From positions 3,779 to 67,778 of the forward strand of contig JAQUPE010000003.1 in assembly GCA_028716745.1 (NCBI GenBank): a stretch of 64,000 nucleotides of DNA, written 5' to 3'. This DNA comes from Minisyncoccota bacterium. Lineage in GTDB: Bacteria; Patescibacteriota; Minisyncoccia; UBA6257; 02-FULL-45-10c. Shown piece after piece: positions 32,933 through 52,673 of the stretch. How positions within the stretch are numbered: the first letter of the stretch is position 1; every line of letters begins with the position of its first letter. Below the pieces are notes generated by a model, which made no database searches, was not told the origin of the DNA, and was given only the letters and a program-made list of their open reading frames with translations. Made by a program: the position numbers and the translations under genes.

Positions 32933-32935
32933 ATC

Positions 32936-34219: not shown

Positions 34220-34232
34220 TAAAAATAAAAAA

Positions 34233-35033: not shown

Positions 35034-35034
35034 G

Positions 35035-35781: not shown

Positions 35782-36712
35782 ACCTGTTATTTGCGGAGTT
35801 TGCGGTAAGTCCGCCAACCTTAACTTTAAAGAAGACTTTAAAGAATATTCGCTTTGGGAATGCCCGGAATGTTTCGGCCAGTTTTGGTCCCCAATGAAAG
35901 GGCCGGGAGCGGGGTGGTATGAAAAGGATGAAAGGTATTCTTTTAGAAATTTAAATCCTTTGGAAAAACCGGAACGCAATCATCGGGAATTTTTGCGCGA
36001 CTTGCCGGCAAAAGGAGGCAGGCTTTTGGATATCGGAATGGGAACGGGAAATTTTTTGGCCGCAGCTGTAAAAAGCGGCTATGACGGATATGGAGTTGAT
36101 TTTGATAGCGAGGCCATAGAAACAGCCAAAAGAGTTTTTGGCCTTAAAAATGTTTCAACCGGAGATTTGGACGGCGTTCTAAAAGATTTTGGAGAAAAAA
36201 GCTTTGATATCGTTACGATGTTTGAGGTTGTGGAACATCTTGAAAATCCGGCGGAATTTATTGAAAAATCAAAGAGGCTTTTAAAAAATGGCGGATATTT
36301 GGCGATAAGCGTGCCTTTCCGCGGAGCGGCTGAATTTTTAAAGCCGAATGATAAGCCCCCGCGCCATCTGACGCGATGGGATAAAAATTCGATGGAAAAC
36401 TTTTTAAAAGAACACGAATTTGAAACGGCTAGAATTAAAATTATTAAAGCACCTATTTCTTATTTAATTACAAAATTTCATTTTTGGACAAGAGGATTTT
36501 TAAGTTTTAACGCGGTCGGCAAATTATCGGCTGTTCCAGCGGGGCAAAAAGCAGTTAATAATAAAGTTTCTTTGAGGGCGAGAGTGATTCAAAAAATGGC
36601 CAGAATAAAAGATTATATTTTATTCTTATTGCCGGCGATTATTCTTTCGGGTATTTTGCTTGTTACCGGCCGCAATGGGCTCGGGTTATATATTTTAGCT
36701 AAGAAAAAATGA
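35768..36712 (+). CDS. Class I SAM methyltransferase with N-terminal zinc-ribbon
   Basis: CGVCG...CPEC (4-Cys ribbon), LLDIGMGTGNFL (motif I), FDIVTMFEVVEHLENP and NGGYLAISVP. Confidence 0.6.
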   Translation: MPNIKPVICGVCGKSANLNFKEDFKEYSLWECPECFGQFWSPMKGPGAGWYEKDERYSFRNLNPLEKPERNHREFLRDLPAKGGRLLDIGMGTGNFLAAAVKSGYDGYGVDFDSEAIETAKRVFGLKNVSTGDLDGVLKDFGEKSFDIVTMFEVVEHLENPAEFIEKSKRLLKNGGYLAISVPFRGAAEFLKPNDKPPRHLTRWDKNSMENFLKEHEFETARIKIIKAPISYLITKFHFWTRGFLSFNAVGKLSAVPAGQKAVNNKVSLRARVIQKMARIKDYILFLLPAIILSGILLVTGRNGLGLYILAKKK

Positions 36713-37926
36713 AGCATAAAGGAACGAAGAAAACAATTAAATTGGGAAATAAATTAATCGGCTGGGGACAGCCGTGTTTTATCGTTGCCGAAGCGGGAGC
36801 TAATCATGATGGAGATTTTGAAAAAGCTAAAATGTTAATTGACGCAGCAGCTGCGGTTAATGCCGATTCAATAAAATTTCAGCATTATCTTGCGGACAAG
36901 CTGGCGTCGCGGGAAGCAAAAAGATATTGGGTTGTAAGAGGAGACGAGCCGGGTTTTCAGTTTGATCCGAATAATTATAAAGATGATCAGGTAGATACTT
37001 TTAAAAAGATAGACGGTATTCCGCGCCATAGAGACAGCGAGCTTTTTGATTATGCCGATAAAAAAGGATTATTAATGTTTTCGACTCCTTTTGATTTCGA
37101 AAGCGTTGATCATTTGGACAGCCTGGGAATACAGATGTATAAAATTGCATCCGGAGACCTAACTTATCATCAGCTGCTTGATTATGTGGCGCGCAAAGGC
37201 AAGCCGGTTGTTCTATCGACAGGCGCGGCAGACATGGACGAAATTCGGGCAGCGGTTGATGTAATAAAAAAAGCGGGCAACAATCAGATTATTCTTTTGC
37301 ATTGCACTTTGGCTTACACTACGCCGCTGGAAAATGCCAATCTTTTGATGATTCGAAATTTACAGGAAGAATTTCCAGATGAGCTTATTGGATTTTCTGA
37401 TCATACGCCCGGCATTGAAGCCGATATTGCAGCAGCTTTGCTTGGAGCGGTGATGATAGAAAAGCATTTTACTCATACGCCGGGAGCGGCAGTGGGAGAA
37501 AACAGGGTTGGCGATAGCCCCGATCATGATATTGGAATTGGTTCGGCGGCTTTTGAAGAAAAAATAAAAAGAATCAGAGAGCATGAAGGAAAAAATTTAA
37601 GCGTTCGTTTGGGACTTGATTTTGAAAAGGCGCTGGAAATGATAAGTGAACTGGGAATAGAAAAAACGTTAGGCTCGCATCAAATTAAGCAGGTTGATTC
37701 CAAGGTGGAATTAAAGGCGCGTTTACAGGCGAGAAGAAGCGTAGTTACCGAAGTTCCGCTCAAAAAAGGAGAGACGCTGACGCAGAAGTTTATTAATGCC
37801 GGAAACCTGTCTTTTAAAAGGCCGGGCACAGGAATACCGCCTTACGAGATTTGTAAGCTTGCCGGAAAAAAATTAAACCGCGATTTGTCGGCGGACGCGG
37901 TTTTAAAGTGGGAATATTTTAAATAA
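36709..37926 (+). CDS. Nonulosonic acid synthase (NeuB/PseI/LegI family) with C-terminal SAF domain
   Basis: IGWGQPCFIVAEAGANHDGDFEKAKMLIDAA...SIKFQHY is the NeuB TIM-barrel signature. The C-terminal ~70 aa are SAF/antifreeze-like. Confidence 0.75.
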   Translation: MKHKGTKKTIKLGNKLIGWGQPCFIVAEAGANHDGDFEKAKMLIDAAAAVNADSIKFQHYLADKLASREAKRYWVVRGDEPGFQFDPNNYKDDQVDTFKKIDGIPRHRDSELFDYADKKGLLMFSTPFDFESVDHLDSLGIQMYKIASGDLTYHQLLDYVARKGKPVVLSTGAADMDEIRAAVDVIKKAGNNQIILLHCTLAYTTPLENANLLMIRNLQEEFPDELIGFSDHTPGIEADIAAALLGAVMIEKHFTHTPGAAVGENRVGDSPDHDIGIGSAAFEEKIKRIREHEGKNLSVRLGLDFEKALEMISELGIEKTLGSHQIKQVDSKVELKARLQARRSVVTEVPLKKGETLTQKFINAGNLSFKRPGTGIPPYEICKLAGKKLNRDLSADAVLKWEYFK

Positions 37927-38499
37927 ATGAACGAAGAAGATTTTATAAAATTGTTGGCCTTTATTGCCAATGAAAGGCCTGAGCGCGCGGACGCTATTGT
38001 TTTTATTGAAGGAGACGGCGGTTCGGATGTTAAGGCGGCCGTTGATTTATACCGTGCGAAATTTGCTCCGAAAATTTTGATAACCGGAGAAATTAAAAGG
38101 GGAAGCAAATCGCGTGTTTTGGGCGTGTTTAAAAAAATGATTAAGCTTGGCGTCCCGGAAAAAAATATAATTATGGAATTTAATTCCGTCAGTGCGCGCG
38201 AACAGGCGATAGAAGTTTTAAAAATTGCCAAGGAGTTGAAATGGAAAAAAATAATTTTAACGGCTCCTCTTTATCACCAGCCTCGTCTTTACGCGACGTT
38301 TATCAGGAGAATGAAAGAAGTTGGATTGAATTTAAAAATCGTAAATTGTCCGATAAGAGAATTGCCGTGGTTTAAAAAGACTATTCACGGGAAAAGAATA
38401 GATCTTTTGAAAACGGAACTGAATAAAATTAAAAAATATGCCAAGAAAGAACATGTAGCGAGCCTTAAAGAAATAACGGAATATGAAAGAAAAAAATAA
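37927..38499 (+). CDS. Hypothetical Rossmann-like protein (DUF218/YdcF-like?)
   Basis: 190 aa with an alternating beta-alpha pattern (AIVFIEGDGG...ILITGE). No definitive motif. Confidence 0.25.
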   Translation: MNEEDFIKLLAFIANERPERADAIVFIEGDGGSDVKAAVDLYRAKFAPKILITGEIKRGSKSRVLGVFKKMIKLGVPEKNIIMEFNSVSAREQAIEVLKIAKELKWKKIILTAPLYHQPRLYATFIRRMKEVGLNLKIVNCPIRELPWFKKTIHGKRIDLLKTELNKIKKYAKKEHVASLKEITEYERKK

Positions 38500-38599
38500 A
38501 GCTCAAATGCTTTATTTTTTTGTGACTAAATGATTGACTTTTGTGTTAAATTATTATATAAACTATGAACGAACTTTGAAAACAAGAGGAGAAATATTT

Positions 38600-39376
38600 A
38601 TGAAAATAATAGCTGTTATCCAAGCAAAAGTAGGTTCAAAGCGTTTACCCAACAAGGCATTTGAAAAGGTTGCCGGCGTTCCGTCAATTGACCATGTCAT
38701 AGACAGAGTTTTGCGGTCAAAAGAAATTGACGGCGTGGCGATAGCCACTTCAAGCGCGGAGGGAAATGAAATTTTTGAATCCAAGGCGCAGGAAAAAAAT
38801 ATCGGATGCTTTCGCGGTTCGGAGAGCGACATTTTAGAGAGGCTCTATCTGACTGCGAAAAAATTCGGGGCCGACGTGATTTTGAGGATTACGGGCGATT
38901 CGCCTTTTGTTGATCCTCATGTAATCGATCAGCTGGTTTCCGAATACAGGAAAAGGAGCGGGGAAATAGTTTTCGCTTCCACCTGTCTTCCGATGACTTT
39001 TCCAGAGGGGCTGAGCATGGAGCTGGTGTCTTTTTCTGTTTTGGAGAAGTTAAATAAAGAGATGACTGATCCGAACGAAAGAGGAACTTTCATGCTTTAC
39101 ATCAGCAGGAATCCCGAGAAATTTCCGCGTTATGCCCTGAAGTATAAGAAAGATGCCAGCCGTATCAGGCTGACTCTGGATTATCCGGAGGATCTGATTC
39201 TGGCAAGGAGAATCTACGATTACTTCTACGGACATAACAAGAAGCATTTCGGGCTGGACGAGGTGATAAGCCTTCTGGAAAAAAATCCAGGATGGGTAGA
39301 GATTAATCAGCATCGCGCCGACAGGAGCAAGTATCCTTTCGTGTACGATAAAGAGGCGGAATTAAAAGCGCTCTAA
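38600..39376 (+). CDS. Cytidylyltransferase, SpsF/PseF-type, second copy
   Basis: Start moved to MKIIAVIQAKVGSKRLPNKAF (RBS AGGAGA upstream). Same CTP_transf_3 signature as the 35035 gene. Confidence 0.65.
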   Translation: MKIIAVIQAKVGSKRLPNKAFEKVAGVPSIDHVIDRVLRSKEIDGVAIATSSAEGNEIFESKAQEKNIGCFRGSESDILERLYLTAKKFGADVILRITGDSPFVDPHVIDQLVSEYRKRSGEIVFASTCLPMTFPEGLSMELVSFSVLEKLNKEMTDPNERGTFMLYISRNPEKFPRYALKYKKDASRIRLTLDYPEDLILARRIYDYFYGHNKKHFGLDEVISLLEKNPGWVEINQHRADRSKYPFVYDKEAELKAL

Positions 39377-39386
39377 GGAGAAAAAA

Positions 39387-39971
39387 ATGAAAGACACAAT
39401 GTTTTTAAAAGGACGATCGATTTTTCTTCGTCCGGTTGAATCAGCAGATATTCCCAAGATAGCGTCGTGGCTCAACAATCCGAAAATCACGCATTTCATG
39501 TTCTACGGCCAGCTTCCAATGAATCTGGAACAGACCGGGGAATTCGTGATGGGCCAGGTGAGGTCTCCGCATAACACGGTGTTTGTGGTTTGCGATTTGA
39601 AAAGCCGCAAGCCGATAGGTTATGCCGGGCTTTATGATATTCATCTGACGGCCCACAAAGCGGAATTTCGGGTTCTGATAGGCGAGCAGCGTTTCTGGGG
39701 CAAGGGCTGCGGTACGGAAGTGACAAAGCTTCTTACCTTCTACGGATTTGACCGGCTGAACCTGAACAAGGTTTATCTGGGAGTCGTTGCGGACAACCAG
39801 AGAGCGGTCAAGAGTTACGAAAAATCCGGATATGTCCGCGAGGGCGCGCTGAGGGAAGAAGTTTACCGCAACAGCCGCTACTACGACGTTGTGAAGATGA
39901 GTATCCTGAAGAAGGAATACTACAAAAAGATTTACAGGGAACACCTGGAAATCTTCGGCAAGGAGAACTAA
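39387..39971 (+). CDS. GNAT family N-acetyltransferase (RimL/PseH-like)
   Basis: LRPVESADIPKIASWLNNP (N-terminal GNAT) and RVLIGEQRFWGKGCGTEV (acetyl-CoA binding motif A). GC-rich segment. Confidence 0.55.
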   Translation: MKDTMFLKGRSIFLRPVESADIPKIASWLNNPKITHFMFYGQLPMNLEQTGEFVMGQVRSPHNTVFVVCDLKSRKPIGYAGLYDIHLTAHKAEFRVLIGEQRFWGKGCGTEVTKLLTFYGFDRLNLNKVYLGVVADNQRAVKSYEKSGYVREGALREEVYRNSRYYDVVKMSILKKEYYKKIYREHLEIFGKEN

Positions 39972-39998: not shown

Positions 39999-41006
39999 AT
40001 GACAAAAAAGTACACAGCGGCCGTAATCGGCTGCGGAAGAATCGGAATGAAGATGGAACTGGATCCGAAAAGATCGCATCCCGCCACTCACGTCGGCGCG
40101 TGGTTGAATAACCCGCGGACGGAATTGGTGGCGCTTGCCGATCCGAATCCGGCCAGCAAAGAAGTCGCCGCGCAGGTGGCGCCCGGAGTACCGATGTATT
40201 CCAGCGCCGAAGAACTGTTCGCGGCGGTCAAGCCGGATATCGTTTCCATAGCGACCATCCTCGAAGGACATTACCCGGTGGTGATGGCGGCGGCGAAAGC
40301 CGGCGTGAAGGCGATAGTGTGCGAGAAGCCGATCGCCGAGAGCGTGGAACAAGGCCTGGAGATGATAGACGCCTGCAAGAAATCGGGATCGCTTCTGATA
40401 ATTAATCACTTCAGAAGGTTTGATCCTGTTCTTAACCAGTGGGCGCAGAAAGTCAGAGGCGGACTCATCGGGGACATCCAGCAGATAACTGGAACTTACT
40501 CGATCGGTCTTTATCACATGGGAACGCACCTTATAGATTTTATAAGGATGTTCGCCGGCGATATCGACTGGGTCATGGGCAAACAGAATACGCGGGCGCA
40601 TACCGCTATTCCCGGCGACACATGCGTGGACGCCATTATGGGAATGAGAAGCGGCGCGCGCGCGGCCATTCAATCGCTCAACGTCAAAGACTACAGCAAC
40701 TTCGAGGTGAGATTTCTGGGAACGAAAGGATCGGTGTGCGTTCGCGACATGGGCCGGGGAATAGAGTATATTCCGGTCCAGGAGTCAAAGCAGTACGGCG
40801 GTTTCTGCGAACTGCATCCCGACAAGCTCGAGTACCACGAGAATCCCTACTTCGCCAAGATGACCTCAATGACAGACTACGTTGTGGCCTGTCTGGACGG
40901 GACTGTTGAAAACGGCAGTAAGGGAGAGGACGGTCTCGCTGTCCTGCGAGTTCTCATGGCTTTGAAAATGAGCGGAGAGGCGGATGGAAGCACAGTCGTT
41001 GTGTAA
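39999..41006 (+). CDS. Gfo/Idh/MocA family NAD(P)-dependent oxidoreductase (GC-rich copy)
   Basis: AAVIGCGRIGMK Rossmann motif, EKP catalytic motif (IVCEKPIAES) and a C-terminal alpha/beta domain. Roughly 58-60% GC versus ~35% flanks. Confidence 0.75.
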   Translation: MTKKYTAAVIGCGRIGMKMELDPKRSHPATHVGAWLNNPRTELVALADPNPASKEVAAQVAPGVPMYSSAEELFAAVKPDIVSIATILEGHYPVVMAAAKAGVKAIVCEKPIAESVEQGLEMIDACKKSGSLLIINHFRRFDPVLNQWAQKVRGGLIGDIQQITGTYSIGLYHMGTHLIDFIRMFAGDIDWVMGKQNTRAHTAIPGDTCVDAIMGMRSGARAAIQSLNVKDYSNFEVRFLGTKGSVCVRDMGRGIEYIPVQESKQYGGFCELHPDKLEYHENPYFAKMTSMTDYVVACLDGTVENGSKGEDGLAVLRVLMALKMSGEADGSTVVV

Positions 41007-41033
41007 AAACAAAAGCAAGAAAACATATGAGAA

Positions 41034-41063
41034 ACCCCCGGCACGTCCGGGGTGTTTTATTTT
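41034..41063 (+). terminator. Rho-independent terminator (CCCCGG-CACGT-CCGGGG + T-run) between the two oxidoreductase paralogs
   Basis: 6-bp GC stem, 5-nt loop and TGTTTTATTTT tail, directly downstream of the stop at 41006. Confidence 0.55.
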
Positions 41064-41073
41064 AATAAGACTT

Positions 41074-42084
41074 ATGGAAAAGAAAATTTATAAGGCGGCC
41101 GTAATTGGCTGCGGAAGAATCGGGGTTTTGCAGGAAAAAGACTGGGATATAAAACCGGCCACTCACGCTTTCGCGTTTTTAAAAAATCCGCGGACCAAGC
41201 TCGTGGCTGTTGCCGATTCAAATATTGAGAATTTAAATAAAGCGAAAAAGATGCTTCCGAAAGGCGTGAAGTTTTTTTCCGACGCGGAAAAACTTTTGCG
41301 CGAAATAAATCCGGATATTGTTTCGGTAGCGGTTCCCCGTGGCGGACATTGCGCATTGGTTGAACTTTTAACAAAATATAAAGCCCCGGCGATTATTTGC
41401 GAAAAGCCGATGGCTGATACAATTGAACAGGCGAAAAAAATGATAGCGGATTGCAAAAAATCAAAGTCATTGCTTTTGATAAATCATCAAAGAAGATTTG
41501 ACCCGGCTCTTAGTGAAATCAGAGACGAAATTAAAAAAGGAACTTTTGGAAAAATTCAGAAAGCCAGATGCCTTTATGTAAATGGGATGTGCAATACAGG
41601 AAGTCATGTAATCGATTATTTAAGATTTTGTTTGGGAGATATTAAATCGGTAAGCGCTGTTAAAAATATGCAGGCGGAAACTTATGATAAAAAAGATTAT
41701 TGCGTTGATGCGTCTTTTAAATTTAAAAATGGTACAGATGTAGTTTGGCAGTCGCTTGATAGAAGAGCGTATTGCATTTGGGAAGCGGAATTTTATGGAA
41801 CTAAAAAAGCGGTGAAAATTAGAGACTTGGGGCAGACGGTTGAAATAGTCGGTCTTAGGCCGAGCCGCCGCTATGTCGGATTTAAAGAGCTTGATCATGA
41901 AAAGCCGGAAAAATTGGGAAATCAAAACAGAAGTTTTTTTAAGGCGATGGCGCAGCACGTTGTTGATTGCTTGGATAAAAAAATAAAACCGGCGAGCACC
42001 GGAGAAGATGGATTAGCGGCTTTAAAAGTTTTGGCGGCGATTAAAAAAAGCGCGGAAAATAAAGGAAAAAGGGTTGACATTTAG
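41074..42084 (+). CDS. Gfo/Idh/MocA family oxidoreductase (AT-rich paralog of the preceding gene)
   Basis: Start moved to MEKKIYKAAVIGCGRIG. ICEKPMADT motif. Collinear ~40% aa identity with the 39999 gene but native AT-rich codon usage. Confidence 0.75.
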   Translation: MEKKIYKAAVIGCGRIGVLQEKDWDIKPATHAFAFLKNPRTKLVAVADSNIENLNKAKKMLPKGVKFFSDAEKLLREINPDIVSVAVPRGGHCALVELLTKYKAPAIICEKPMADTIEQAKKMIADCKKSKSLLLINHQRRFDPALSEIRDEIKKGTFGKIQKARCLYVNGMCNTGSHVIDYLRFCLGDIKSVSAVKNMQAETYDKKDYCVDASFKFKNGTDVVWQSLDRRAYCIWEAEFYGTKKAVKIRDLGQTVEIVGLRPSRRYVGFKELDHEKPEKLGNQNRSFFKAMAQHVVDCLDKKIKPASTGEDGLAALKVLAAIKKSAENKGKRVDI

Positions 42085-43649: not shown

Positions 43650-43657
43650 CACGAAGT

Positions 43658-43684
43658 GCCGCCCCTCAAAAGGCGGCTTTTTTG
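43658..43684 (+). terminator. Rho-independent terminator (GCCGCC...GGCGGC + TTTTTT)
   Basis: Lies between the radical SAM stop (43649) and the asparagine-synthetase-like start (43734). It argues against the ORF-track start at 43656. Confidence 0.5.
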
Positions 43685-43733
43685 CCTTAATTTTTATAAA
43701 ACAAAGAGCCTATTTTTGGGGTTTTATTACTAT

Positions 43734-46700
43734 ATGTGCGGGATAGCCGGAATAATGGATTTTAAGAGCCAGAAGGTTGATGGGGAAATAATCAGGAAAA
43801 TGACCGAAAGCATGGCTCATAGAGGCCCTAATGGAGAGGGCGTTTTTTTATCTGGGAATATTGGGCTTGGACATCGTCGGCTTAGCATTTTGGATTTGAG
43901 CAATGCGGGCAGTCAGCCGATGACAGTTGGCGACGTAACGATTACCCATAACGGAGAAGTTTATAATTATTTGGAAATTAAAAAAGAATTGGATGGAGAA
44001 AAATATAAAAGCGGTACGGATACGGAAGTAATTATTCGCGCTTATGAAAAGTGGGGAGAAAAGTGCGTGGAAAAATTTAACGGAATTTTTGCCTTTGCGA
44101 TTTGGGATGAAAAGAAAAAACAATTATTTGCGGTTCGGGACCGTTTTGGCGTCAAACCATTTTATTACTCTATTTACAAAAACAAATTTTATTTTGCCTC
44201 CGAGATAAAAGCGATTTTGGCAGCGGGTGTTCCGGCAAAGCCGAACGATAAAATTATCCATCAATATTTGACGACAGGATTTTATGATCATAGCGAAGAA
44301 ACTTTTTTTGAGGGCATCAAGCAATTAATGCCGGGGCATGCAATTTTTGCCAAAGACGGAAAAATTAAAATTTGGCGCTATTGGTATTTGCCGGAAAAGA
44401 TTCAAAATCTGAAAGGAATTAAAGATGAAGAATGTGTAGAAAAGTTTTTAAGCTTATTGGAAGATTCTTCCAAGCTTCAGCTTCGCAGCGACGTGCCGGT
44501 AGGAATAAGCGTGAGCGGAGGATTAGACTCCTCGCTTCTTACGGCGGCAGTTGATAAGGCAGCCGGCGGTCAGAGCAATTTTCAATTGTTTCATTTCGTT
44601 TATCAGGGAAAAAATTATGATTTAGAAACTCCTTTTGTTAATTTATTGGCTAAAAGATTGGGATGGGACAAGCCGAATATAGTTGAAGTTAATCCTGCGG
44701 ATGTTGAAAACATGGCTTCTAAAATAATGTGGCATGAAGAACAGCCATTTCCCGGTCTTCCTACTTCGGGCTGGCATAAGCTTTATCGGAACATAGGGGA
44801 TACAAAAACAGTAGTGACTTTGGAGGGGCATGGAGGCGATGAAATGGCGGCCGGTTATGACTATTATGTGGGCAGTTTTCTTTTGGATGTTTTAAATGAG
44901 CGAGGCGCAGAAGCTATGCTGAGGGAATGCGAGGCTATAGCTGAAATTAGAGGCTTAAAATGGGGTCAAGAACTGGATTCATTCATTGAAAATGGATTGA
45001 TGGCATATGCTGGCGGAGGAATTTCTGCTGATTCTTCCAAGTTTATTAACACGGATTGTTTAAATAATAAATTTGTGAAAAACGATTTTCCGAAGCCGAA
45101 ATTTGAAGAACCATTCGATTCTTATTTATTAAACATACAGTTTAGAGAATTGATGCATACTAAGCTGCCGAGAGTGCTGAGAAGCGTTGACCGCGAGTCT
45201 ATGGCGTTTAGCCGAGAACTTCGCGTTCCGTTTTTAGACCATCGTTTAGTGGAATTTTCTTTTTCTTTGCCATTGGAGCAAAAAATACACGGCGGGCACT
45301 TAAGGTATTTTATGAGAAATGCAGCTGCAAAATTTCTTCCAAAAGAAATTAGCCACATGCCAAAGCGTTCTTTGCCTAATCCGCAAAGACAGTGGTTCCA
45401 GAACGAATTAAAGCCGTGGATTTTTGGAATATTATCATCGGAATCTTTTAGAAAAAGGAAATATTTCAATCAGGAAGCGGTTTTAAAAGAATACGAAAAT
45501 TATTGCCGGCAGCCGAATCCGATAAATTCTTTTCATATTTGGCAATGGGTCAATTTAGAATTATGGCTGAGAACCTTCATTGATTCCGATATGAGCGCCA
45601 ATGACGGCGCAAAAACTATTTTTTTTGTTATTGCGACTATGGCGCGCGTCAATTTTATCCTTCGCACGGATATATTTAAAATTTTAAAAGAAAAAGGTTA
45701 TCGCTTAATTGTAATATCTCCTTTCTATAAAGAGGATTGGTTTATAAAAGAATTCGGCGGTCCAAATGTGATTTTTGAAAAACTTGTCAGAAGGGGGCGA
45801 TTGGCGAAAATTTGGGAAAATTTCAGAAATAAAGTTTTATTGATTAATAACCCGAGACTCGAACGTTGCAAGGAAATTCATTCTTGCGCCAGGAAATTTT
45901 ACCGCAAAAAGGGAATTTTGAGCGGTCTCTGGAGGGAGTCAAAGAATATTTTTTATAGTTTTATTTTAGCGATAATTCCCAGAAAATTGCGCGGCTCAGT
46001 TGTTTTTTGGGCAAAAGTTGGTTTTTATTTTTTGACCAAAAAAGATCATAGAGATTTGTTCAAAAAATATAAGCCGGCAGTGGTTGTTATGGCAAGTGCC
46101 GGAGCAGAGGGGGAAAACATACCGTTTTTGGTTAGTTGCATAAAATTCAATGTTTTGTCCTTTGCCGTTGATAATAATATAGATGTCTTTCAGTTCAGGT
46201 ATTTCAGCAGGCCTAGAAAAGTTACTAAATGGGCTCTTTTTAGCGAAATTCAGAAAAAAGAAGCTATGGAAATGCAGTTGGTTCCGGAATCCGAGCTGGC
46301 GGTTACGGGTCCTGCCAGGTATGACCATTACTTCAAGGGATTCAAGCCCATGCCCCGTGAAGAATTTTTCAAAAAGATAGGCGCAGATCCGAAGAAAAAG
46401 CTGATTACTTTTGGAGCAAAAACGCCAATGATTTATCCGCATAACGGGGATATTATAGATATAATTTACGAAGCCATAAGCAAGAATCATTTTTCTAAGC
46501 CAGCTCAGCTATTCATTCGTTTTGATCCCGGCCATAATCCGGCGCAATATAAGGATTTGTCAAAGAAGGCTATTTTCGAAAGAGCTGAAGATTTTTCGCA
46601 TCGTGATCATATCGCAAATCTTTTGTATTATAGCGATGTTGTTATAAGTATGGGATCGACTTTTTGCATAGAGGCTTGCATGGCTGGAACCCCGGCTTTA

Positions 46701-46979
46701 TGGGTAGGCTTTGATGGTTATAAAAAATATCCGAATATAAAAGATTCTTACAGGTATGTGTATGAGCTGGATTTATTTAAGAGGCTTTTGTCCAGCGGAG
46801 GAATACCGCTGGTTGAATCGCCGGAGATGCTGGTTGGGCAGATAGAAAAATATTTGAAAAATCGAGATTTGGATAAAGATAAAAGGCAAAAGTTAATGGA
46901 CCAGGAATATTTTGGGCTGGATGGCCATGCGGGAGAGAGGATAGCTGATTTGATAATTGATTTGGTTGAAAATAATTAA
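43734..46979 (+). CDS. Fusion protein: N-terminal AsnB-type glutamine amidotransferase (asparagine synthetase family, PseA/WbpS-like) plus C-terminal ~450-aa GT-B-like domain
   Basis: Starts MCGIAGI (Ntn-hydrolase Cys1). The SVSGGLDSS PP-loop lies at about aa 290. From about aa 640 (MARVNFILRTD...) the sequence matches the downstream paralog, which has GSTFxIEAxxxGTPAxWV GT-B C-domain-like motifs. Confidence 0.7.
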   Translation: MCGIAGIMDFKSQKVDGEIIRKMTESMAHRGPNGEGVFLSGNIGLGHRRLSILDLSNAGSQPMTVGDVTITHNGEVYNYLEIKKELDGEKYKSGTDTEVIIRAYEKWGEKCVEKFNGIFAFAIWDEKKKQLFAVRDRFGVKPFYYSIYKNKFYFASEIKAILAAGVPAKPNDKIIHQYLTTGFYDHSEETFFEGIKQLMPGHAIFAKDGKIKIWRYWYLPEKIQNLKGIKDEECVEKFLSLLEDSSKLQLRSDVPVGISVSGGLDSSLLTAAVDKAAGGQSNFQLFHFVYQGKNYDLETPFVNLLAKRLGWDKPNIVEVNPADVENMASKIMWHEEQPFPGLPTSGWHKLYRNIGDTKTVVTLEGHGGDEMAAGYDYYVGSFLLDVLNERGAEAMLRECEAIAEIRGLKWGQELDSFIENGLMAYAGGGISADSSKFINTDCLNNKFVKNDFPKPKFEEPFDSYLLNIQFRELMHTKLPRVLRSVDRESMAFSRELRVPFLDHRLVEFSFSLPLEQKIHGGHLRYFMRNAAAKFLPKEISHMPKRSLPNPQRQWFQNELKPWIFGILSSESFRKRKYFNQEAVLKEYENYCRQPNPINSFHIWQWVNLELWLRTFIDSDMSANDGAKTIFFVIATMARVNFILRTDIFKILKEKGYRLIVISPFYKEDWFIKEFGGPNVIFEKLVRRGRLAKIWENFRNKVLLINNPRLERCKEIHSCARKFYRKKGILSGLWRESKNIFYSFILAIIPRKLRGSVVFWAKVGFYFLTKKDHRDLFKKYKPAVVVMASAGAEGENIPFLVSCIKFNVLSFAVDNNIDVFQFRYFSRPRKVTKWALFSEIQKKEAMEMQLVPESELAVTGPARYDHYFKGFKPMPREEFFKKIGADPKKKLITFGAKTPMIYPHNGDIIDIIYEAISKNHFSKPAQLFIRFDPGHNPAQYKDLSKKAIFERAEDFSHRDHIANLLYYSDVVISMGSTFCIEACMAGTPALWVGFDGYKKYPNIKDSYRYVYELDLFKRLLSSGGIPLVESPEMLVGQIEKYLKNRDLDKDKRQKLMDQEYFGLDGHAGERIADLIIDLVENN
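45651..45762 (+). repeat. 112-nt tract 100% identical to 47023..47134 (direct repeat between tandem paralogs)
   Basis: Exact nucleotide identity encoding NFILRTDIFKILKEKGYRLIVISPFYKEDWFIKEFGG. Flanking sequence is diverged even at the protein level. Confidence 0.8.
46335..46405 (+). repeat. 71-nt tract 100% identical to 47709..47779
   Basis: Exact identity encoding KGFKPMPREEFFKKIGADPKKKL in both paralogs. Confidence 0.8.
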
Positions 46980-46980
46980 T

Positions 46981-48333
46981 ATGAAAACAATATTTTTAGT
47001 TATTACTGCTAATACGAGAGTAAATTTTATCCTTCGCACGGATATATTTAAAATTTTAAAAGAAAAAGGTTATCGCTTAATTGTAATATCTCCTTTCTAT
47101 AAAGAGGATTGGTTTATAAAAGAATTCGGCGGTCAGAGTGTTGTTTTTGAAAAATTTATTCCTAAAGCTAAAATTGGAGCCATATGGGATAGCTGGCGCA
47201 GCCAGATTTTGGCGATTAATCATCCAAAGATGAAAATTTTTAAAGAAACTCATGATTATGCCAGCCGGCGTTTTGTTAAGAAAAAAAATCCAGTTCAAAA
47301 AATAGCCAGCATTTTTAAGGGCTTCGTTTTGGCTTTAATTCCGGGATTTCTTAAAACCAGCGCGGATTTATGGGACAAAATAGGTTTTTATTTTTTAGTT
47401 ACTTCAAATCACAAAAAATTATTTAGAAAATATAGTCCGGCGGCTGTTGTTTTGGCGAGCGCCGGAGCTGAGGGTTCGGAAACGCCGTACATATCCTATT
47501 GCGGGAAATATGGGATTTTTTCGTTTGCCGTCGATAATAATATAGACGTTTTTGAATACCGCTATCTCAGCAAGCCAATGAGAGTTTCCAAGTGGACGTT
47601 GTTCGGGGATCCGCAAAAAGAGGAGGCAATAGAGATTCAAAAAATTCCCTCATCGGAATTAGTTGTACCCGGACCGGCGCGTTACGATTATTATTTTAAG
47701 GGATTCAAGCCCATGCCCCGTGAAGAATTTTTCAAAAAGATAGGCGCAGATCCGAAGAAAAAGCTGATAACCTATGGAGCCAAGATTCCGGTTATGTATC
47801 CTCACAACGGCGATATAATGAGAATTATTTTAGATGCCATTAAAGAAAGAAAATTTAATGACGCTCAATTATTTGTGAGATTTGATCCCAATCATGACGC
47901 TAAAATATACGGAGATTTATTGAAAGAAATTATTTATGAACGGGCAGAAGAGGCTCCTACGCGGGATCATTTGGCTAATTTATTTTATTATAGCGATGTT
48001 GTTGTTAGCATCGGGTCTACATTTGGCATAGAAGCATGTTTTACCGGGACGCCGGCAATTTGGGTAGGATTTGACGGCTATAAAAAATATGATGATCCTA
48101 AAGACGCTTACGGATTTATTTACGAACTGGATTTATTTAAAAGAATTGCGGATACCAAGGGGATTCCAATTGTTTGGACCAAGGAGGAATTAACGGATAA
48201 AATAAAAAAATATCTGGCGGATAGGAATTTAGACGCCGATAAAAGAAAAAAACTTATAGATCAGGAGTATTCTAATCCCGACGGACATGCCGGAGAAAGA
48301 ATCGCAAATATAATAATAGAAACAATAAAATGA
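46981..48333 (+). CDS. Stand-alone GT-B-like domain protein, tandem paralog of the C-terminal domain of the upstream fusion
   Basis: About 60% aa identity to aa 640-1107 of the 43734 gene, with the same motifs (PARYDYYFKGFKP, GSTFGIEACFTGTPAIWVGFDGYKKY). Start moved to MKTIFLVI. Confidence 0.55.
   Translation: MKTIFLVITANTRVNFILRTDIFKILKEKGYRLIVISPFYKEDWFIKEFGGQSVVFEKFIPKAKIGAIWDSWRSQILAINHPKMKIFKETHDYASRRFVKKKNPVQKIASIFKGFVLALIPGFLKTSADLWDKIGFYFLVTSNHKKLFRKYSPAAVVLASAGAEGSETPYISYCGKYGIFSFAVDNNIDVFEYRYLSKPMRVSKWTLFGDPQKEEAIEIQKIPSSELVVPGPARYDYYFKGFKPMPREEFFKKIGADPKKKLITYGAKIPVMYPHNGDIMRIILDAIKERKFNDAQLFVRFDPNHDAKIYGDLLKEIIYERAEEAPTRDHLANLFYYSDVVVSIGSTFGIEACFTGTPAIWVGFDGYKKYDDPKDAYGFIYELDLFKRIADTKGIPIVWTKEELTDKIKKYLADRNLDADKRKKLIDQEYSNPDGHAGERIANIIIETIK
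47023..47134 (+). repeat. Copy of the 112-nt identical tract (see 45651..45762)
   Basis: Direct comparison of the two stretches. Confidence 0.8.
47709..47779 (+). repeat. Copy of the 71-nt identical tract (see 46335..46405)
   Basis: Direct comparison of the two stretches. Confidence 0.8.
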
Positions 48334-49556
48334 AAAGAATAAGCCAATATTTTGGAAATTTTTTCGGAGTCAATATGAATTACCTTATTGGAGGGGGATT
48401 TTGGCTCGGCTTAGATCAGATTTTTTCTGCGGGAACAAGCATGGTTCTAACTGTGGCTTTCGCTAACCTTATTTCACAGGAAGCTTACGGGACTTATCGC
48501 TATATTCTTTCAATTTTCGGTATTTTAACGATTGCTACGCTGCCGAACATGAATATAGCCGTTCTAACATCGGTTGCCAGAGGATTTGAAAATTTATCAA
48601 AAGCTCTTAAGAGCAGGATTGAATGGGGATTTATAGGAACGATAGCCGGTTTTTCTTTGGCGGGTTTTTATTTTTATCAAGGCAATAATTTGCTTGGATA
48701 TGCTTTCATAATAATGGCTGTATTTCTTCCCTTCACGGATTCCTTTAATGTCTTTCTGGCTTTTTTCAGGGGGAGAAAGCTTTTTAGGGAACAAACTTTA
48801 TATTCCATTATCATAAAATCGGTATCGGCCGCTGCTTTGATTGCAACACTTTTTCTGACAGAAAATCTGCTGATAATTTTATTGGCTTTTTTTATTCCCT
48901 ATGTTTTATCAAGAGTATTTTTATATTGGCTTGCGGTTAAAAAGTTTTCTCCGAATAACGAAGTTGATCCGAATACAATTTCTTACGGGAAAAATTTAAG
49001 CCTTCTTCAGTTTTTAGGATTCGTAGTGAATTATTTGGATAATCTTCTGATATTTTATTATCTCGGCCCTATTTCCTTGGCTATTTATACGATGGCTATG
49101 GCGCCGATATCAAAGTTTCAGAAAGCCTTTTCTATATTGCCGGACTTGGCATTACCTAAGTTTTCCGAGCGGCCAGCCGAAGAAATAAAAAAGTATTTAA
49201 TTAAGAGAATTTTTAAATTGTTTATTTTTATAATTCCGATAGTTGCGGTCTATATTTTAATAGCCCCGATGATTTTTGATTTTTTTCTTCCCAAATACCA
49301 TGATTCCATATTTTATACGCAGCTGCTTTCTTTGGTATTTTTATGTCTTCCTTTTTCTCTTATTTATACTTTTATGCAGTCCAAGGCAATGCAGAAGCAG
49401 CTTTATATTTACAATATTTCTATTCGCATAATCCAGCTTATCCTCACAGTAATTTTTGTGGGTTTATACGGGGTGATGGGAGCCGTCATAGCCAGGCTGA
49501 TTTTCCAGCTTGCAGCAACGTCCATTCTTTTTGTTATTTTTAAGGCGGTTAAATAG
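48330..49556 (+). CDS. Polysaccharide biosynthesis protein / Wzx-like flippase (MOP superfamily)
   Basis: About 12 TM helices and no soluble domain. Size and topology match oligosaccharide flippases. Confidence 0.5.
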   Translation: MKRISQYFGNFFGVNMNYLIGGGFWLGLDQIFSAGTSMVLTVAFANLISQEAYGTYRYILSIFGILTIATLPNMNIAVLTSVARGFENLSKALKSRIEWGFIGTIAGFSLAGFYFYQGNNLLGYAFIIMAVFLPFTDSFNVFLAFFRGRKLFREQTLYSIIIKSVSAAALIATLFLTENLLIILLAFFIPYVLSRVFLYWLAVKKFSPNNEVDPNTISYGKNLSLLQFLGFVVNYLDNLLIFYYLGPISLAIYTMAMAPISKFQKAFSILPDLALPKFSERPAEEIKKYLIKRIFKLFIFIIPIVAVYILIAPMIFDFFLPKYHDSIFYTQLLSLVFLCLPFSLIYTFMQSKAMQKQLYIYNISIRIIQLILTVIFVGLYGVMGAVIARLIFQLAATSILFVIFKAVK

Positions 49557-49603
49557 TTGTATATTAGTAAGAATAATAGTATTTTAATTAATAAATAATT
49601 AAT

Positions 49604-50440
49604 ATGAATAATAAAAAAATAGGAATTGCGGGCGTTGGGATGGTGGGAAAACAAGTAGAAAGATGGTTTGAGCCCAAGGAAAACCAGGTTTTTGTTTACG
49701 ATAAATTTCAAAAATTAGGATCTTTAGAGGATTTAAATAAGGCAGAGATTATATTTTTATGCCTTCCTACTCCTTATAGGGATAATAATGAAGAGGGCAC
49801 TGATTTAGATGCATTTAAAGAAGTAATAAGGTTTTTTAAAGAACCGAAAATTTTTGTAATAAAATCAACCGTACCAGTCGGTTCAACAGACAAGCTGCAA
49901 GAAGAATTTAGTCAGCATTATTTTTTGCATAGTCCGGAATTTCTTACGGAAGTTACAGCCTGGGACGATTTTTCCAAGCCTTATTTGCAGTTAATCGGAT
50001 ATACGGAAAAAAGCAAAAAATTAGCGGAAGGAATAATGGATATTCTGCCCAAGGGGGAGCAGTCATTTATTTCGTCCGCAAAAGTAACCGAGATGTTCAA
50101 GTTTATCCGCAATGTTTTCCCTTCAATAAAAATTATTTTTATGAATCTTATTTATGATTTGTGCGGACCTCTTGGAATTGAATACGATGAAGTTAAAAAA
50201 ATTATGGCAGCCGATAAATGGATAGGCACAAGCCATTTAGAAGTGGTTCATAAGGGGTATCGCGGTTTTGGCGGGAAATGCTTGCCGAAAGACTTAAGGA
50301 TGCTTATTAAATTATGCAAAAATAAAAAAGTTAAAGCGGATCTTTTGGAAATAGTAGACAAGGTAAATTATGATCTTTTGAAGGGACAGGGCCTTGAGAA
50401 GAAGCTTGAAGAATTCTGGCTAAACAATCATAATCAGTAG
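49604..50440 (+). CDS. Nucleotide-sugar dehydrogenase family protein (UDP-glucose/GDP-mannose dehydrogenase-like), short form lacking the C-terminal domain
   Basis: KIGIAGVGMVGK NAD-binding motif and the catalytic-Cys signature GFGGKCLPKD (compare GFGGSCFPKD). Only 278 aa, and it stops about 50 aa after the Cys. Confidence 0.5.
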   Translation: MNNKKIGIAGVGMVGKQVERWFEPKENQVFVYDKFQKLGSLEDLNKAEIIFLCLPTPYRDNNEEGTDLDAFKEVIRFFKEPKIFVIKSTVPVGSTDKLQEEFSQHYFLHSPEFLTEVTAWDDFSKPYLQLIGYTEKSKKLAEGIMDILPKGEQSFISSAKVTEMFKFIRNVFPSIKIIFMNLIYDLCGPLGIEYDEVKKIMAADKWIGTSHLEVVHKGYRGFGGKCLPKDLRMLIKLCKNKKVKADLLEIVDKVNYDLLKGQGLEKKLEEFWLNNHNQ

Positions 50441-50459
50441 GTTAATTAGATTTAAAACA

Positions 50460-52673
50460 ATGATTCAATCTTTAAAGCTAGAAAAAGCGATTTCTTGGAT
50501 GATTAAAATAGGATTATTTATTATTCCTTTTATACCGCTTCATGTTTCAAACAGCCTGATATTTCCTTATATTACCGGAAAAGCTTTTATTTTCCGCACA
50601 ATAGTGGAAATAGTTTTTGCTCTTTGGATTTTTCTGGCGGTTTTTTATAAGCAATATCGTCCTCAAAAGAATTTTCTTCTTATAGCAATAGGTACTTTAG
50701 TTTTTGTGGCGGCTTTAGCCACTATTTTTGGAGTAAATCCAGTGAAGAGCATGTGGTCAAATTTTGAGAGGATGGAGGGGCTGATCACTTATTTGCATTT
50801 GTTCGCTTATTTTCTTGTTATGGGAAGCGTTTTGCAGAAAAGTGATTGGACAATATTGTTTAATTTTTTTGTGGCCGGCGGGTTGTTTGAAGGCGTTTAT
50901 TCTTTTTTCCAAAAACTGGAAGTATTGGTTCCACGTTCGTTTCAGGGCGGTTTCAGGGTAGACGGCACAATCGGCAATCCTTCTTATTTGGCCGCTTATT
51001 TGATGTTTGTTTTCGGTTTTTGCGTTTTGCTATGGATTAATGCCAAGAAAAAATCTTCCAAATATTATTATGCGTTTGCCGGCCTTTTTACTTTATTAAT
51101 TATCTTTTTTACGGCAAGCCGCGGACCAGCGCTCGGAATTATAATGGGAGCTTTTCTGGCCGGACTTCTGTATTTGATATTTAAGAAAAGCATTACTGAC
51201 AAAGAACGGACCTATAAGAAGGTAGCGGTTATTTTATTGGTTTTATTGGCGGCAATTATCGGTTCTTTGTTGCTATTAAAAGATTCTAAATTTGTTAAGA
51301 GCAGTGAAATTCTTGCCAGGCTTACATCTTTATCATTTACGGAGAGAACTATTTCTGCGCGTTTTACAATTTGGGGGATGAGCTGGCAGGGAGTTAAAGA
51401 GAGGCCTGTTTTGGGCTGGGGGCCGGAAAACTACGGAGTTGTTTTTTCCAAGTATTATCAGCCGGAGCTTTGGTGGCAGGAACCGTGGTTTGACAGGGCC
51501 CACAATGTTGTTTTTGACTGGCTGATAAGCGCGGGAATTTTGGGACTACTTAGTTATCTAAGTATTTTTGCCACAGCTCTTTATTATTTATGGAAGAACT
51601 ATTCTAAAAAAATAGTATTTTTTGAAGAAACACTTCTTATAACTTCCTTGTTTTTCGCTTATTTTTTCCAGAATTTGTTTATATTTGATAATATATCAAC
51701 TTATATTTGTTTCTTCGCCATTCTTTCTTACATATACAGCGTTTCTACTTCCGAAAGATTTGAAGCGCCTAAATCGAATTCTTCTTTGGACGCAAATAAT
51801 GTTTTTTTGGTAGGCGGATTACTGGCGATTTCTTTGGTTTTGGCTGTCTATTTTATTAATATCAAGACCTATATATCAAATCGCAGCCTGCTTGAAACCT
51901 TAAAGTATCAGAGCCAATACAGCGATTTGCCTATTTCTTTCGATTATTTTAATAAGGCTTTTAAAAACGATGTTTTAAATGCTCCGGAAATAAAAGAGCA
52001 ATTAATAAAGTTTGCCGTTGGAGTAAATAGTTTGCCGGCAGCGGATGAGGCTTTTAAGGCTGAGGTTGTCAAAAAAGCGATTGAAGAAGGAAAGAAGATG
52101 GTAGAACAAGATTATCTTGAGCCCCGTTCATATTTATTTTATGGGAACGCTTTAATGGCCGGAAAAGAATTTAAAGAAGCAGAAGAAATATTTAATAAGG
52201 CAATTGAACTTTCTCCAAAAAAGCAGCAGATATATTTTGAGTTATCGGATGTTTTTGTTTATAGAGGCGATTATAAGAGCGCAATTCCATTTTTAGAAGT
52301 AGCTTATAATCTTGATACTCGTTTTGAAATGGCCAGAATTAATTTGGCGGCTATATATATTTCGGCTGGCGAGGTGGAAAAAGCGGAAAAATTATTGATG
52401 GATGCTTACGGAACGATTGCGGTTCCTCATGAAATAATAGGCGCGGCATATGCAAAGATAAAAAGTTATGACAAGAGCATAGCCGTTTGGAAATTAGTTA
52501 AAGAAAGCGATCCTACTAGTTTGCGATACAGGAAAACCTTGGCGGGGATTTATAATTTAGCCGGTCAAAAGGAAAATGCGATAAAAGAAATTGAGGAAGC
52601 GATAGCGGCATTCCCGGAGTTTAAAGCGGCAGGAACTACATATATTGAACAGATAAAATCGGGCAAGATCTAA
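50460..52673 (+). CDS. O-antigen ligase/polymerase-like (Wzy_C) membrane protein with C-terminal TPR repeats
   Basis: The N-terminal ~430 aa are polytopic with the large periplasmic loop typical of the WaaL/Wzy family. The C-terminal ~250 aa contain TPR-like repeats (AEEIFNKAIELSPKK, AIPFLEVAYNLDTR). Confidence 0.55.
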   Translation: MIQSLKLEKAISWMIKIGLFIIPFIPLHVSNSLIFPYITGKAFIFRTIVEIVFALWIFLAVFYKQYRPQKNFLLIAIGTLVFVAALATIFGVNPVKSMWSNFERMEGLITYLHLFAYFLVMGSVLQKSDWTILFNFFVAGGLFEGVYSFFQKLEVLVPRSFQGGFRVDGTIGNPSYLAAYLMFVFGFCVLLWINAKKKSSKYYYAFAGLFTLLIIFFTASRGPALGIIMGAFLAGLLYLIFKKSITDKERTYKKVAVILLVLLAAIIGSLLLLKDSKFVKSSEILARLTSLSFTERTISARFTIWGMSWQGVKERPVLGWGPENYGVVFSKYYQPELWWQEPWFDRAHNVVFDWLISAGILGLLSYLSIFATALYYLWKNYSKKIVFFEETLLITSLFFAYFFQNLFIFDNISTYICFFAILSYIYSVSTSERFEAPKSNSSLDANNVFLVGGLLAISLVLAVYFINIKTYISNRSLLETLKYQSQYSDLPISFDYFNKAFKNDVLNAPEIKEQLIKFAVGVNSLPAADEAFKAEVVKKAIEEGKKMVEQDYLEPRSYLFYGNALMAGKEFKEAEEIFNKAIELSPKKQQIYFELSDVFVYRGDYKSAIPFLEVAYNLDTRFEMARINLAAIYISAGEVEKAEKLLMDAYGTIAVPHEIIGAAYAKIKSYDKSIAVWKLVKESDPTSLRYRKTLAGIYNLAGQKENAIKEIEEAIAAFPEFKAAGTTYIEQIKSGKI

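Follow-up and report, generated by a model that had tools for sequence, protein, structure and literature searches.

An AsnB-type amidotransferase fused to a TagF-like GT-B domain in a Minisyncoccota glycan locus, and a conserved gene pair in related loci

The DNA considered here (the "window") is a stretch of 64,000 nucleotides (nt) from contig JAQUPE010000003.1 of a Minisyncoccota bacterium, nearly all of which is occupied by one large glycan locus. Within this locus lies gene A, which encodes a protein of 1081 amino acids (aa) in which an AsnB-type amidotransferase is fused to a GT-B transferase domain of the TagF-like superfamily, and directly behind it lies gene B, which encodes a stand-alone copy of the same GT-B domain. 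The parts are of known kinds and the fusion is a one-off variant, so that we see no new kind of system here. The sturdier, mildly new result is that an AsnB gene and a transferase gene form a conserved pair in glycan loci of bacteria of the candidate phyla radiation (CPR), with an ATGA overlap of the two genes in three loci, and it is on this conserved adjacency, not on the fusion, that the functional link between the two enzymes rests. Also mildly new is the large, uncurated and His-less branch of the TagF-like superfamily to which the transferases belong, which is linked to genes for CMP-ulosonic acids. Taken overall, the explanation that we favour, with somewhat better than even confidence, is one of CMP-nonulosonic acid transfer plus WbpS-like amidation, the two functions having been joined by a read-through fusion of neighbouring genes. 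Transferases of the nonulosonic acids (Pse, pseudaminic acid, and Leg, legionaminic acid) are poorly known, and GtfS of Tannerella forsythia is among the few with genetic support. The family described here comprises about 14,000 representatives related to GtfS and TagF, one subfamily of it occurs in CPR bacteria in close pairing with an AsnB-type amidotransferase, and it adds to the scarce knowledge of cell-surface glycans in the Patescibacteria.

The fused gene and its tandem paralog

The features of genes A and B on which the argument depends are as follows.

43658..43677, plus strand: terminator-like hairpin with T-run (GCCGCC-loop-GGCGGC, 6/6 GC pairs, TTTTTT tail)
43734..46979, plus strand: gene A, fused AsnB-type amidotransferase and TagF-like/BFO_1060-like GT-B domain (1081 aa, intact open reading frame, ORF)
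43734..44222, plus strand: class II (N-terminal nucleophile, Ntn) glutaminase domain of gene A, aa 1-163, nucleophile Cys2 (from Pfam and motifs)
44445..45572, plus strand: Asn_synthase (PP-loop ATP-pyrophosphatase) domain of gene A, aa 238-613 (from Pfam and NCBIfam)
44514-44534, plus strand: PP-loop SGGLDSS of gene A, aa 261-267 (from the motif)
45576..45611, plus strand: fusion junction, FID (the usual AsnB C-terminus) followed by SD-MSANDGA (from comparison with relatives)
45612..46976, plus strand: transferase domain of GT-B type in gene A, aa 627-1081 (from alignment with gene B)
46981..48333, plus strand: gene B, stand-alone GT-B paralog of 450 aa, the more diverged copy (from the ORF and BLASTP)
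45651-45762 = 47023-47134, plus strand: exact repeat 1, 112 nt, shared by the DNA of genes A and B
46335-46405 = 47698-47768, plus strand: exact repeat 2, 71 nt, shared by the DNA of genes A and B

The open frame of gene A extends from 43656 to 46979 on the plus strand (1107 codons) and opens with a GTG. Since that GTG falls within the terminator-like hairpin and the sequence MCGIAG begins at the ATG at 43734, the true start of gene A is placed at this ATG, which gives the product of 1081 aa. The hairpin is found just 3' of a B12-radical-SAM gene and 57 nt ahead of the start of gene A, and it is the 5' boundary of the gene A unit. A first, sequence-only reading of the window had been accurate in its coordinates, in the length of the protein and in the AsnB motifs that it named, among them MCGIAG and SGGLDSS. 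Both of the expected Pfam domains are found well above their cutoffs, GATase_7 (PF13537) at aa 47-163 (E 6.7e-43, 146 bits as against 25) and Asn_synthase (PF00733) at aa 238-613 (E 1.3e-60, 206 bits as against 21), and the NCBIfam model TIGR01536 scores 412 bits where 267 are required. The glutaminase motifs MCGIAG (aa 1-6), HRGPNG, GHRRLS, HNGEVYNY and TDTEV are all intact. The AsnB part takes up aa 1 to about 618 and is followed by a link of 9 residues and then by a domain of about 455 aa. The entire protein is 100% identical to one deposited from a Candidatus Pacebacteria metagenome-assembled genome (MAG), and it is known from this single occurrence, on one contig of 72.5 kb.

Gene B begins 1 nt past the stop codon of gene A (TAAtATG), and BLASTP aligns residues 627-1079 of the gene A product with the entire gene B product at 61% identity (276/454 columns, E = 0.0), very near the figure of about 60% at which the downstream gene had first been called a paralog of the C-terminal domain. 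The DNA of the two copies is a mosaic. One of the two exact tracts covers the beta-alpha-beta region at the N-terminus and the other the 'FKPMPREEFFKKIGADPKKKLIT' segment; elsewhere the DNA identity is about 50-70%, third positions are saturated and the proteins are 54.9% identical. Exact tracts set amid synonymously saturated DNA indicate an old duplication overlaid with recent patches of gene conversion. A misassembly through collapse of strains was considered as a source of the tandem and rejected, on the grounds that, away from the two short conversion tracts, identity between the copies is only about 55% and that the TAAtATG junction and the overlap of gene B with the Wzx gene both look native. 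Because the fused copy is nearer to the single-copy orthologs found elsewhere (up to 53.5% identity, as compared to 47-48% for gene B), it is the conservative and positionally ancestral copy and gene B a diverged extra. The gene A domain and gene B alike have kept every position that does not vary within the close family (25/25), including those of the motifs DNNID, GPARYD, GAK, RFDP, GST..E, GFDG and DG..GER, and for this reason both putative transferases are probably active.

The AsnB-transferase pair and the origin of the junction

Nine distinct related loci with upstream DNA were available for comparison, from MAGs of Parcubacteria, Harrisonbacteria, Saccharibacteria and Paceibacterota. 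Loci L001 and L002 are near-identical assemblies and L005 and L006 lie on the same contig, and each of these pairs was counted once; the AsnB match of L009 is in two pieces and was not counted as intact. An AsnB gene is present in all nine loci and is always an ORF separate from that of the transferase, so that the survey of related genomes proposed in the sequence-only reading did not turn up the same fusion in any of them. In seven of the nine (L001, L003, L005, L007, L008, L010 and L012), a single transferase gene directly follows an AsnB ortholog of about 617 aa (50-64% identical), except that one small ORF on the opposite strand comes between them in L003. The AsnB gene of L004 is one gene away from the transferase and that of L013 is 6 kb away, a deoxysugar cassette having been inserted between them. 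Among loci of the NeuB type the conserved block has the order GFO-GFO-AsnB-transferase-Wzx-(dehydrogenase-like)-Wzy/TPR. The stop codon of AsnB and the start codon of the transferase overlap as ATGA in L007, L008 and L010, and a gap of 6 nt separates the two genes in L001.

The junction of gene A was compared with these separate genes. Stand-alone AsnB orthologs terminate in ...W(F/H/L)R.FID(K)(K), and the window sequence is ttc att gat tcc gat ATG Agc gcc aat gac ggc gca aaa act att ttt, or FID-SD-M-SANDGA-KTIFF in translation (the assembled junction segment is 'gattccgatatgagc'). The ATG at 45591-45593 (M620) sits where the transferases of relatives start, e.g., MNKSDKKTIFF in L008 and MSDRTIFF in L005. 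An out-of-frame TGA (45592-45594) remains from the ancestral ATGA overlap, in the form 'ata tga' that is also seen at the AsnB end of L010, and the spacing from 'gat' to 'ata tga' is 4 nt in the window and 6 nt in L010. This difference in spacing, together with the retained ATG and out-of-frame TGA, shows that the fusion was created by a frame-merging indel, a net gain of 1 nt or loss of 2 nt within the last AsnB codons.

The architecture was not recognized in the sequence-only reading, and two large protein searches bear this out. On the AsnB side, the best 8000 relatives were scored in a database of 5.8 billion clusters and the best 120 of them were examined for length; all besides the query are 596-645 aa long, and since a fused homolog would outscore relatives of that size, the fusion is unique in this search. 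On the transferase side, a family profile run against 1.84 billion representatives (E <= 0.001) returned 14,261 relatives (clusters at 50% identity), and among the best 150 of these an AsnB-sized N-terminal extension is found only in the window protein. A word-indexed homology search with gene B left out the 1081-aa fusion (61% identity over 450 aa), which was recovered by the exhaustive profile search. The AsnB fusion is a one-off, but the transferase is found joined to tailoring domains time and again: the family includes transferase-methyltransferase fusions (P0127 and P0236), a fusion with a polysaccharide deacetylase (P0220) and a fusion with a GT2-like region (P0184). The top scorers of the family profile are five tandem double-domain transferases of about 900 aa (P0172-P0176), which by analogy suggest that two successive transfers may take place. 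As a separate observation, the double-domain layout of these five proteins parallels the two-copy arrangement in the window.

An indel between overlapping genes is a classic route to a natural fusion, yet it is also what an indel in an assembly consensus would yield, and we give an artefact a lesser but serious share of the probability. On that account, an insertion error of 1 nt or a deletion error of 2 nt at 45585-45590 of the MAG consensus joined two overlapping genes; AsnB would then end as ...FID-x-I-stop at the TGA of an ATGA, and, as in relatives, the ATG at 45591 would be the start codon of the transferase. What speaks for such an error is that the two enzymes are separate ORFs in all of the related loci, that the window still has the ATG (M620) as well as the out-of-frame TGA, with a spacing difference of exactly frameshift length, and that the fusion is one sequence in 5.8 billion clusters, on one contig. 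Independent support for the junction was sought by an exact look-up of the product, which returned no record, and by a search of metagenome contigs with a gapped junction pattern, which returned no match; these results weigh against a genuine fusion. Set against an error are the sequence at the site, which reads 'tccgat' and has no homopolymer, the annotation of an intact 1081-aa protein by NCBI, and the common occurrence of natural fusions with tailoring domains in this transferase family, besides the fact that overlapping gene pairs are where genuine fusions classically arise. The proposal that amidation and transfer are coupled, which the sequence-only reading drew from the fusion, draws its support from the conserved adjacency of the two genes and not from the fusion, the latter being a singleton that stems from an indel and is possibly an assembly error. 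Should the fusion be real, it would constitute "Rosetta stone" evidence that AsnB and the transferase act together. It would also offer a single-polypeptide construct for both activities, one that could help to assign the unexplained AsnB genes of glycan loci, including Tanf_01265 of T. forsythia.

Family and function of the GT-B modules

A structure model of gene B, built from an alignment of 46 sequences, has a pLDDT of 94.2 and a pTM of 0.90 and consists of two Rossmann-like halves, which is the GT-B fold. The sequence-only reading had foreseen a GT-B-like C-terminal domain of about 450 aa, and the model, being GT-B, does not show the non-transferase fold that would have told against that reading. 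Foldseek searches with the model gave generic GT-B matches only. No PDB sequence was matched by gene B alone, and the sole match of the family profile to PDB sequences was to TarL (E 0.0038), in an alignment that pairs the GxPRxD and 'S..S..E ... P.I..FD' motifs of the nucleotide domain. Among curated models the best is NF046086 (BFO_1060 family glycosyltransferase), at 60.8 bits for gene A and 64.3 bits for gene B. It is the top NCBIfam model in 46/46 family members (best E 7e-26), a few of which also match the models for NeuC (4), TarF (2) and TarB (1). Pfam Glyphos_transf (PF04464) is clearly matched by more distant relatives. The domain is accordingly a GT-B transferase of the TagF-like superfamily whose nearest known relatives are nonulosonic acid transferases, and of the folds first offered as candidates the TagF-like one was broadly right, the nearest curated family being that of the nonulosonic acid transferases of T. 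forsythia. Deletion of the T. forsythia member (BFO_1060/Tanf_01245/TFUB4_00887) strips a terminal Pse/Leg derivative from the S-layer O-glycan (PMC5420450).

Several observations weigh against this assignment or complicate it. In the alignment of the family profile with TarL, the KMHP stretch of TarL, which holds the TagF-type 'HP' motif whose His contacts the pyrophosphate, falls on RFDP in the window family, with Asp in place of His. The His of 'YPHN' is not conserved across the family, and no invariant His was found in the family alignment; the invariant or nearly invariant residues are D189 (in NSWD/DNNID), R300 (in RFDP), E351, R422, D434-G435 and R440. Given this lack of conserved histidines, catalysis may differ from that of TagF and from that of the sialyltransferase-like GtfS. 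Both window copies score below every curated family cutoff for the GT-B domain: Glyphos_transf reaches 17.1 bits on gene B (cutoff 22.1) and has no match on gene A at E <= 1, and both copies miss the NF046086 cutoff of 200 bits with matches that cover the C-terminal half of the model (positions ~210-365). The supply of uronic acid for amidation is uncertain in the window, where the UDPG_MGDP_dh-like gene encodes only 278 aa.

The genes of the window that bear on the function of the two enzymes are the following.

29664..39971, plus strand: nonulosonic acid cassette (4,6-dehydratase, PseC/LegC-like aminotransferase, formyltransferase, two CTP_transf_3 cytidylyltransferase genes, methyltransferase, NeuB-family synthase and PseH-like GNAT)
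36709-37926, plus strand: NeuB-family nonulosonic acid synthase (229 bits)
39999..42084, plus strand: two GFO/IDH/MocA oxidoreductase genes (conserved upstream block with AsnB in NeuB-type loci)
48330..52673, plus strand: conserved downstream block from Wzx to Wzy_C (from Pfam and synteny)
48330-49556, plus strand: Wzx-like flippase (conserved downstream block)
49604-50440, plus strand: short UDPG_MGDP_dh-like gene (278 aa, model positions 70-294 of 413)
50460-52673, plus strand: Wzy_C/O-antigen-ligase-like protein with TPR repeats (conserved downstream block)

The presence of the NeuB-family synthase and of two CTP_transf_3 genes upholds the view, already taken in the sequence-only reading, that the locus makes a nonulosonic acid, and the cassette at 29664-39971 supplies the presumed CMP-activated donor. 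Genes for a NeuB-family synthase with CTP_transf_3, or PseF-like together with KdsC-like genes, also recur in the related loci.

The closest known system is that of GtfS (Tanf_01245/TFUB4_00887/BFO_1060), which likewise has a TagB-like GT-B domain and belongs to a Wzx-type glycan locus with genes for nonulosonic acid synthesis, methyltransferases, an AsnB and a UDP-sugar dehydrogenase; its curated family is, as noted, the best for both window copies and for all 46 relatives. The window copies differ from GtfS in that they reach 61-64 bits of the 200 required, over only the C-terminal ~155 residues, and in that their family has no conserved counterpart of the HP motif of GtfS. For GtfS, sialyltransferase-like HP and D/E-D/E-G motifs have been reported; near the C-terminus the window family has an invariant D434-G435, which may or may not answer to the latter. 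A further difference is that the AsnB gene of T. forsythia lies four locus tags off (Tanf_01265 as against Tanf_01245) and is neither adjacent nor fused to the transferase gene. Other possible parallels are two-module transferases for ulosonic acids, such as KpsC with its two beta-Kdo transferase domains, and multi-enzyme polymerases of TagF-like kind, such as Bcs3; the window modules differ in being on two polypeptides, one of which is joined to an amidotransferase.

TagF, TarL and TagB (PF04464) share the GT-B fold with the window domain, and one might suppose that the GT-B modules work as TagF-type phosphotransferases, with a CDP donor from which an alditol phosphate or a sugar phosphate is passed on in teichoic-acid-like chemistry. 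We consider this improbable. The Pfam family is matched below its cutoff by gene B and not at all by gene A, the His in the KMHP stretch of TarL is replaced by Asp (RFDP), and if 'NSWD' corresponds to the TagF 'WHG' motif, the catalytic His would be Asp there as well. The window context supplies CMP-ulosonic acids, not CDP-alditols: no gene for the synthesis of CDP-glycerol or CDP-ribitol (TagD/TarI type), and no TagD/IspD-type cytidylyltransferase, was seen in the window ORFs scanned, and the related loci, where they could be inspected, repeatedly carry genes for CMP-ulosonic acid synthetases. NF046086, moreover, outranks the TarB and TarF models in 46/46 members.

Less probable still is a role as NeuC/PseG-like nucleotide-sugar hydrolases or 2-epimerases that would fill a gap in the nonulosonic acid pathway. 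A UDP-GlcNAc 2-epimerase had been among the candidates of the sequence-only reading and is not supported, Pfam Epimerase_2 (PF02350) being matched by neither copy. Loci L001 and L003 hold separate Epimerase_2 genes besides the transferase gene, which itself keeps company with the assembly genes of the locus, Wzx and Wzy, outside the biosynthesis cassette. A better candidate for the hydrolase is a 306-aa ORF (32012-32932) within the cassette. This ORF has no Pfam match and only weak matches to the C-terminal half of the BFO_1060 (E 5e-8) and TIGR04396 (E 2e-8) models; it could be the missing PseG/LegG-like hydrolase or else a third, truncated transferase.

To return to the preferred explanation, the domain identities, the fold, the paralogy, the synteny and the origin of the junction are shown by the data, and its donor, amidation substrate and order of steps are what we infer. 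The AsnB/WbpS-like module would hydrolyse glutamine and use ATP to adenylate a sugar carboxylate, which would become a carboxamide; in this way it would neutralise an acidic sugar of the repeat unit, most likely by turning a uronic acid into a uronamide, or else by acting on the nonulosonic acid. The GT-B modules would be cytidine-nucleotide-dependent transferases of the TagF-like superfamily, with GtfS (BFO_1060) as their closest curated kin. On the cytoplasmic face of the membrane, the two modules would attach CMP-activated nonulosonic acid to the lipid-linked repeat unit, perhaps at two positions or by adding two such residues. Wzx would then flip the unit, and the Wzy_C/TPR protein would polymerise or ligate it. 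A bolder proposal has AsnB and the transferase form an obligate complex, caught in gene A as one polypeptide, which would amidate the nonulosonic acid at its C1 carboxylate, or its acceptor uronic acid, in concert with transfer, the GT-B modules being a new, His-less catalytic variant. If true, CPR bacteria would possess a charge-neutralised, sialic-acid-like surface sugar made by an undescribed bifunctional enzyme, and we think the chance of this slight.

The amidation substrate and the surrounding locus

The intact Cys2, PP-loop and glutaminase motifs of gene A imply transfer of ammonia: with the glutaminase domain intact, ammonia would be the nucleophile, which would yield a primary amide or perhaps an amidine. 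The best solved relative of the AsnB module is a hydroxyamidotransferase (7ylz, E 1e-55), ahead of E. coli AsnB (E 7e-36). A housekeeping asparagine synthetase was considered as an alternative and is unlikely, in view of the conserved synteny in glycan loci and the weak similarity to the E. coli and human enzymes; the glycan-locus context argues for a sugar substrate and not for aspartate. PseA, which the sequence-only reading cited as an AsnB paralog, belongs to the PP-loop family of WbpG/N-acetyl-sugar amidotransferases and not to AsnB, and no NCBIfam model of that kind was matched by gene A. The other example cited, WbpS, was aptly chosen, as it does amidate carboxylates (PMC7468200). Together with WbqG and PGN_1234 of P. 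gingivalis, it is among the AsnB-type enzymes that turn a uronic acid into a uronamide in glycan loci, as genetic evidence shows (PMC7468200; PMC6025236). The window enzyme resembles these three in being a two-domain AsnB in a glycan locus near genes for Wzx, a Wbp-like oxidoreductase and an aminotransferase, with a short dehydrogenase-like gene also nearby. It differs from them in scoring far under the cutoff of TIGR03108 (eps_aminotran_1; 344.9 bits as against 816.9) and in its membership of a CPR clade whose regular partner is a TagF-like transferase.

A uronamide is, in our estimate, about an even prospect as the product of amidation. The WbpB-like GFO oxidoreductases, a DegT aminotransferase and GNAT (26.5-28.4 kb) and the short dehydrogenase-like gene all fit a Wbp-type uronamide pathway. 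The last of these lacks the canonical N-terminus and the C-terminal domain, and its relatives are also short (314-316 aa), so that it looks like a conserved non-canonical form and not a pseudogene. Amidation directed at the nonulosonic acid, to give an amidine or a C1 amide, has a smaller though still considerable claim, and some other substrate has a minor one. The nonulosonic acid is a candidate substrate because no PseA/WbpG-type enzyme was found in the window and because two loci that have no dehydrogenase close by still carry the gene pair. HisH/HisF-like partners were also looked for in the window, and none was found. In the flanks of these loci (L004 and L005) no NeuB-family synthase and no UDP-sugar dehydrogenase were seen and the AsnB-transferase pair is kept; present are an ABC transporter, a PseF-like cytidylyltransferase and more BFO_1060-like genes, with a KdsC-like phosphatase in L005.

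Within the nonulosonic acid option, the AsnB module might turn an N-acetyl group into an acetamidino group (Pse5Am/Leg5Am-type), which we regard as unlikely, if less so than the TagF-type or concerted schemes above. Besides the lack of a PseA/WbpG-type amidotransferase in the window and the PseF-like cytidylyltransferases of the two dehydrogenase-free loci, this idea can draw on T. forsythia. The O-glycosylation cluster of that organism includes GtfS, two methyltransferases, AsnB (Tanf_01265), WecC and WecB, its glycan bears ManNAcCONH2 and Pse5Am7Gra, and acetamidino formation by Tanf_01265 has been proposed by the authors of that study (PMC6120980). Against it, no AsnB-family enzyme is known to have been shown to form an amidine, the demonstrated role in glycans being conversion of a carboxylate to a carboxamide, and the AsnB of the window is flanked by the WbpB-like oxidoreductases and the UDPG_MGDP_dh-like gene that fit the uronamide pathway. 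Known acetamidino formation uses the PseA/WbpG family, which also counts against it. The Pse5Ac7Am-type chemistry suggested in the sequence-only reading thus survives as one option, behind the conversion of uronic acid to uronamide that is supported for AsnB-type enzymes (PMC7468200).

The remainder of the window is rich in glycan genes, with many GT4 and GT2 glycosyltransferases, PMT_2-type membrane transferases and methyltransferases, and beyond the Wzy_C/TPR gene there follow a second flippase, an epimerase and a Bac_transf initiating transferase. Four B12-binding radical-SAM genes (9082-10542, 12008-13450, 15889-17304 and 42162-43649) and a cobalamin adenosyltransferase gene (58995-59528) are present, a set that suggests that sugars are extensively modified by cobalamin-dependent (C-)methylation or by radical tailoring of another sort. 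A DUF4910/DUF2172/M28-peptidase-like protein (32936-34219) is encoded inside the nonulosonic acid cassette, adjoining the formyltransferase gene, and the window opens with an ORF of 781 aa (8-2353) that matches no Pfam family at E <= 1e-4.

Related loci also carry distant paralogs of the transferase (25-30% identity), two or three per locus, that alternate with GNAT, methyltransferase, acyl-carrier/AMP-ligase and deacetylase genes, which suggests that transferases and tailoring enzymes are combined in modular fashion. Two or three TagF-like/BFO_1060-like paralogs each are found in L015 (5323-13316), L016 (10001-21353) and L005 (14600-20965), where pyruvyltransferase genes are also interleaved and an ABC transporter is present in some; such loci have the look of assembly lines put together from modules, whose products would be acidic polymers with heavy tailoring. 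Sulfate-activation genes (ATP-sulfurylase/APS kinase) adjoin the transferase loci of L005 (20962-21365) and L011 (1615-2316), hinting at sulfated glycans in these two relatives.

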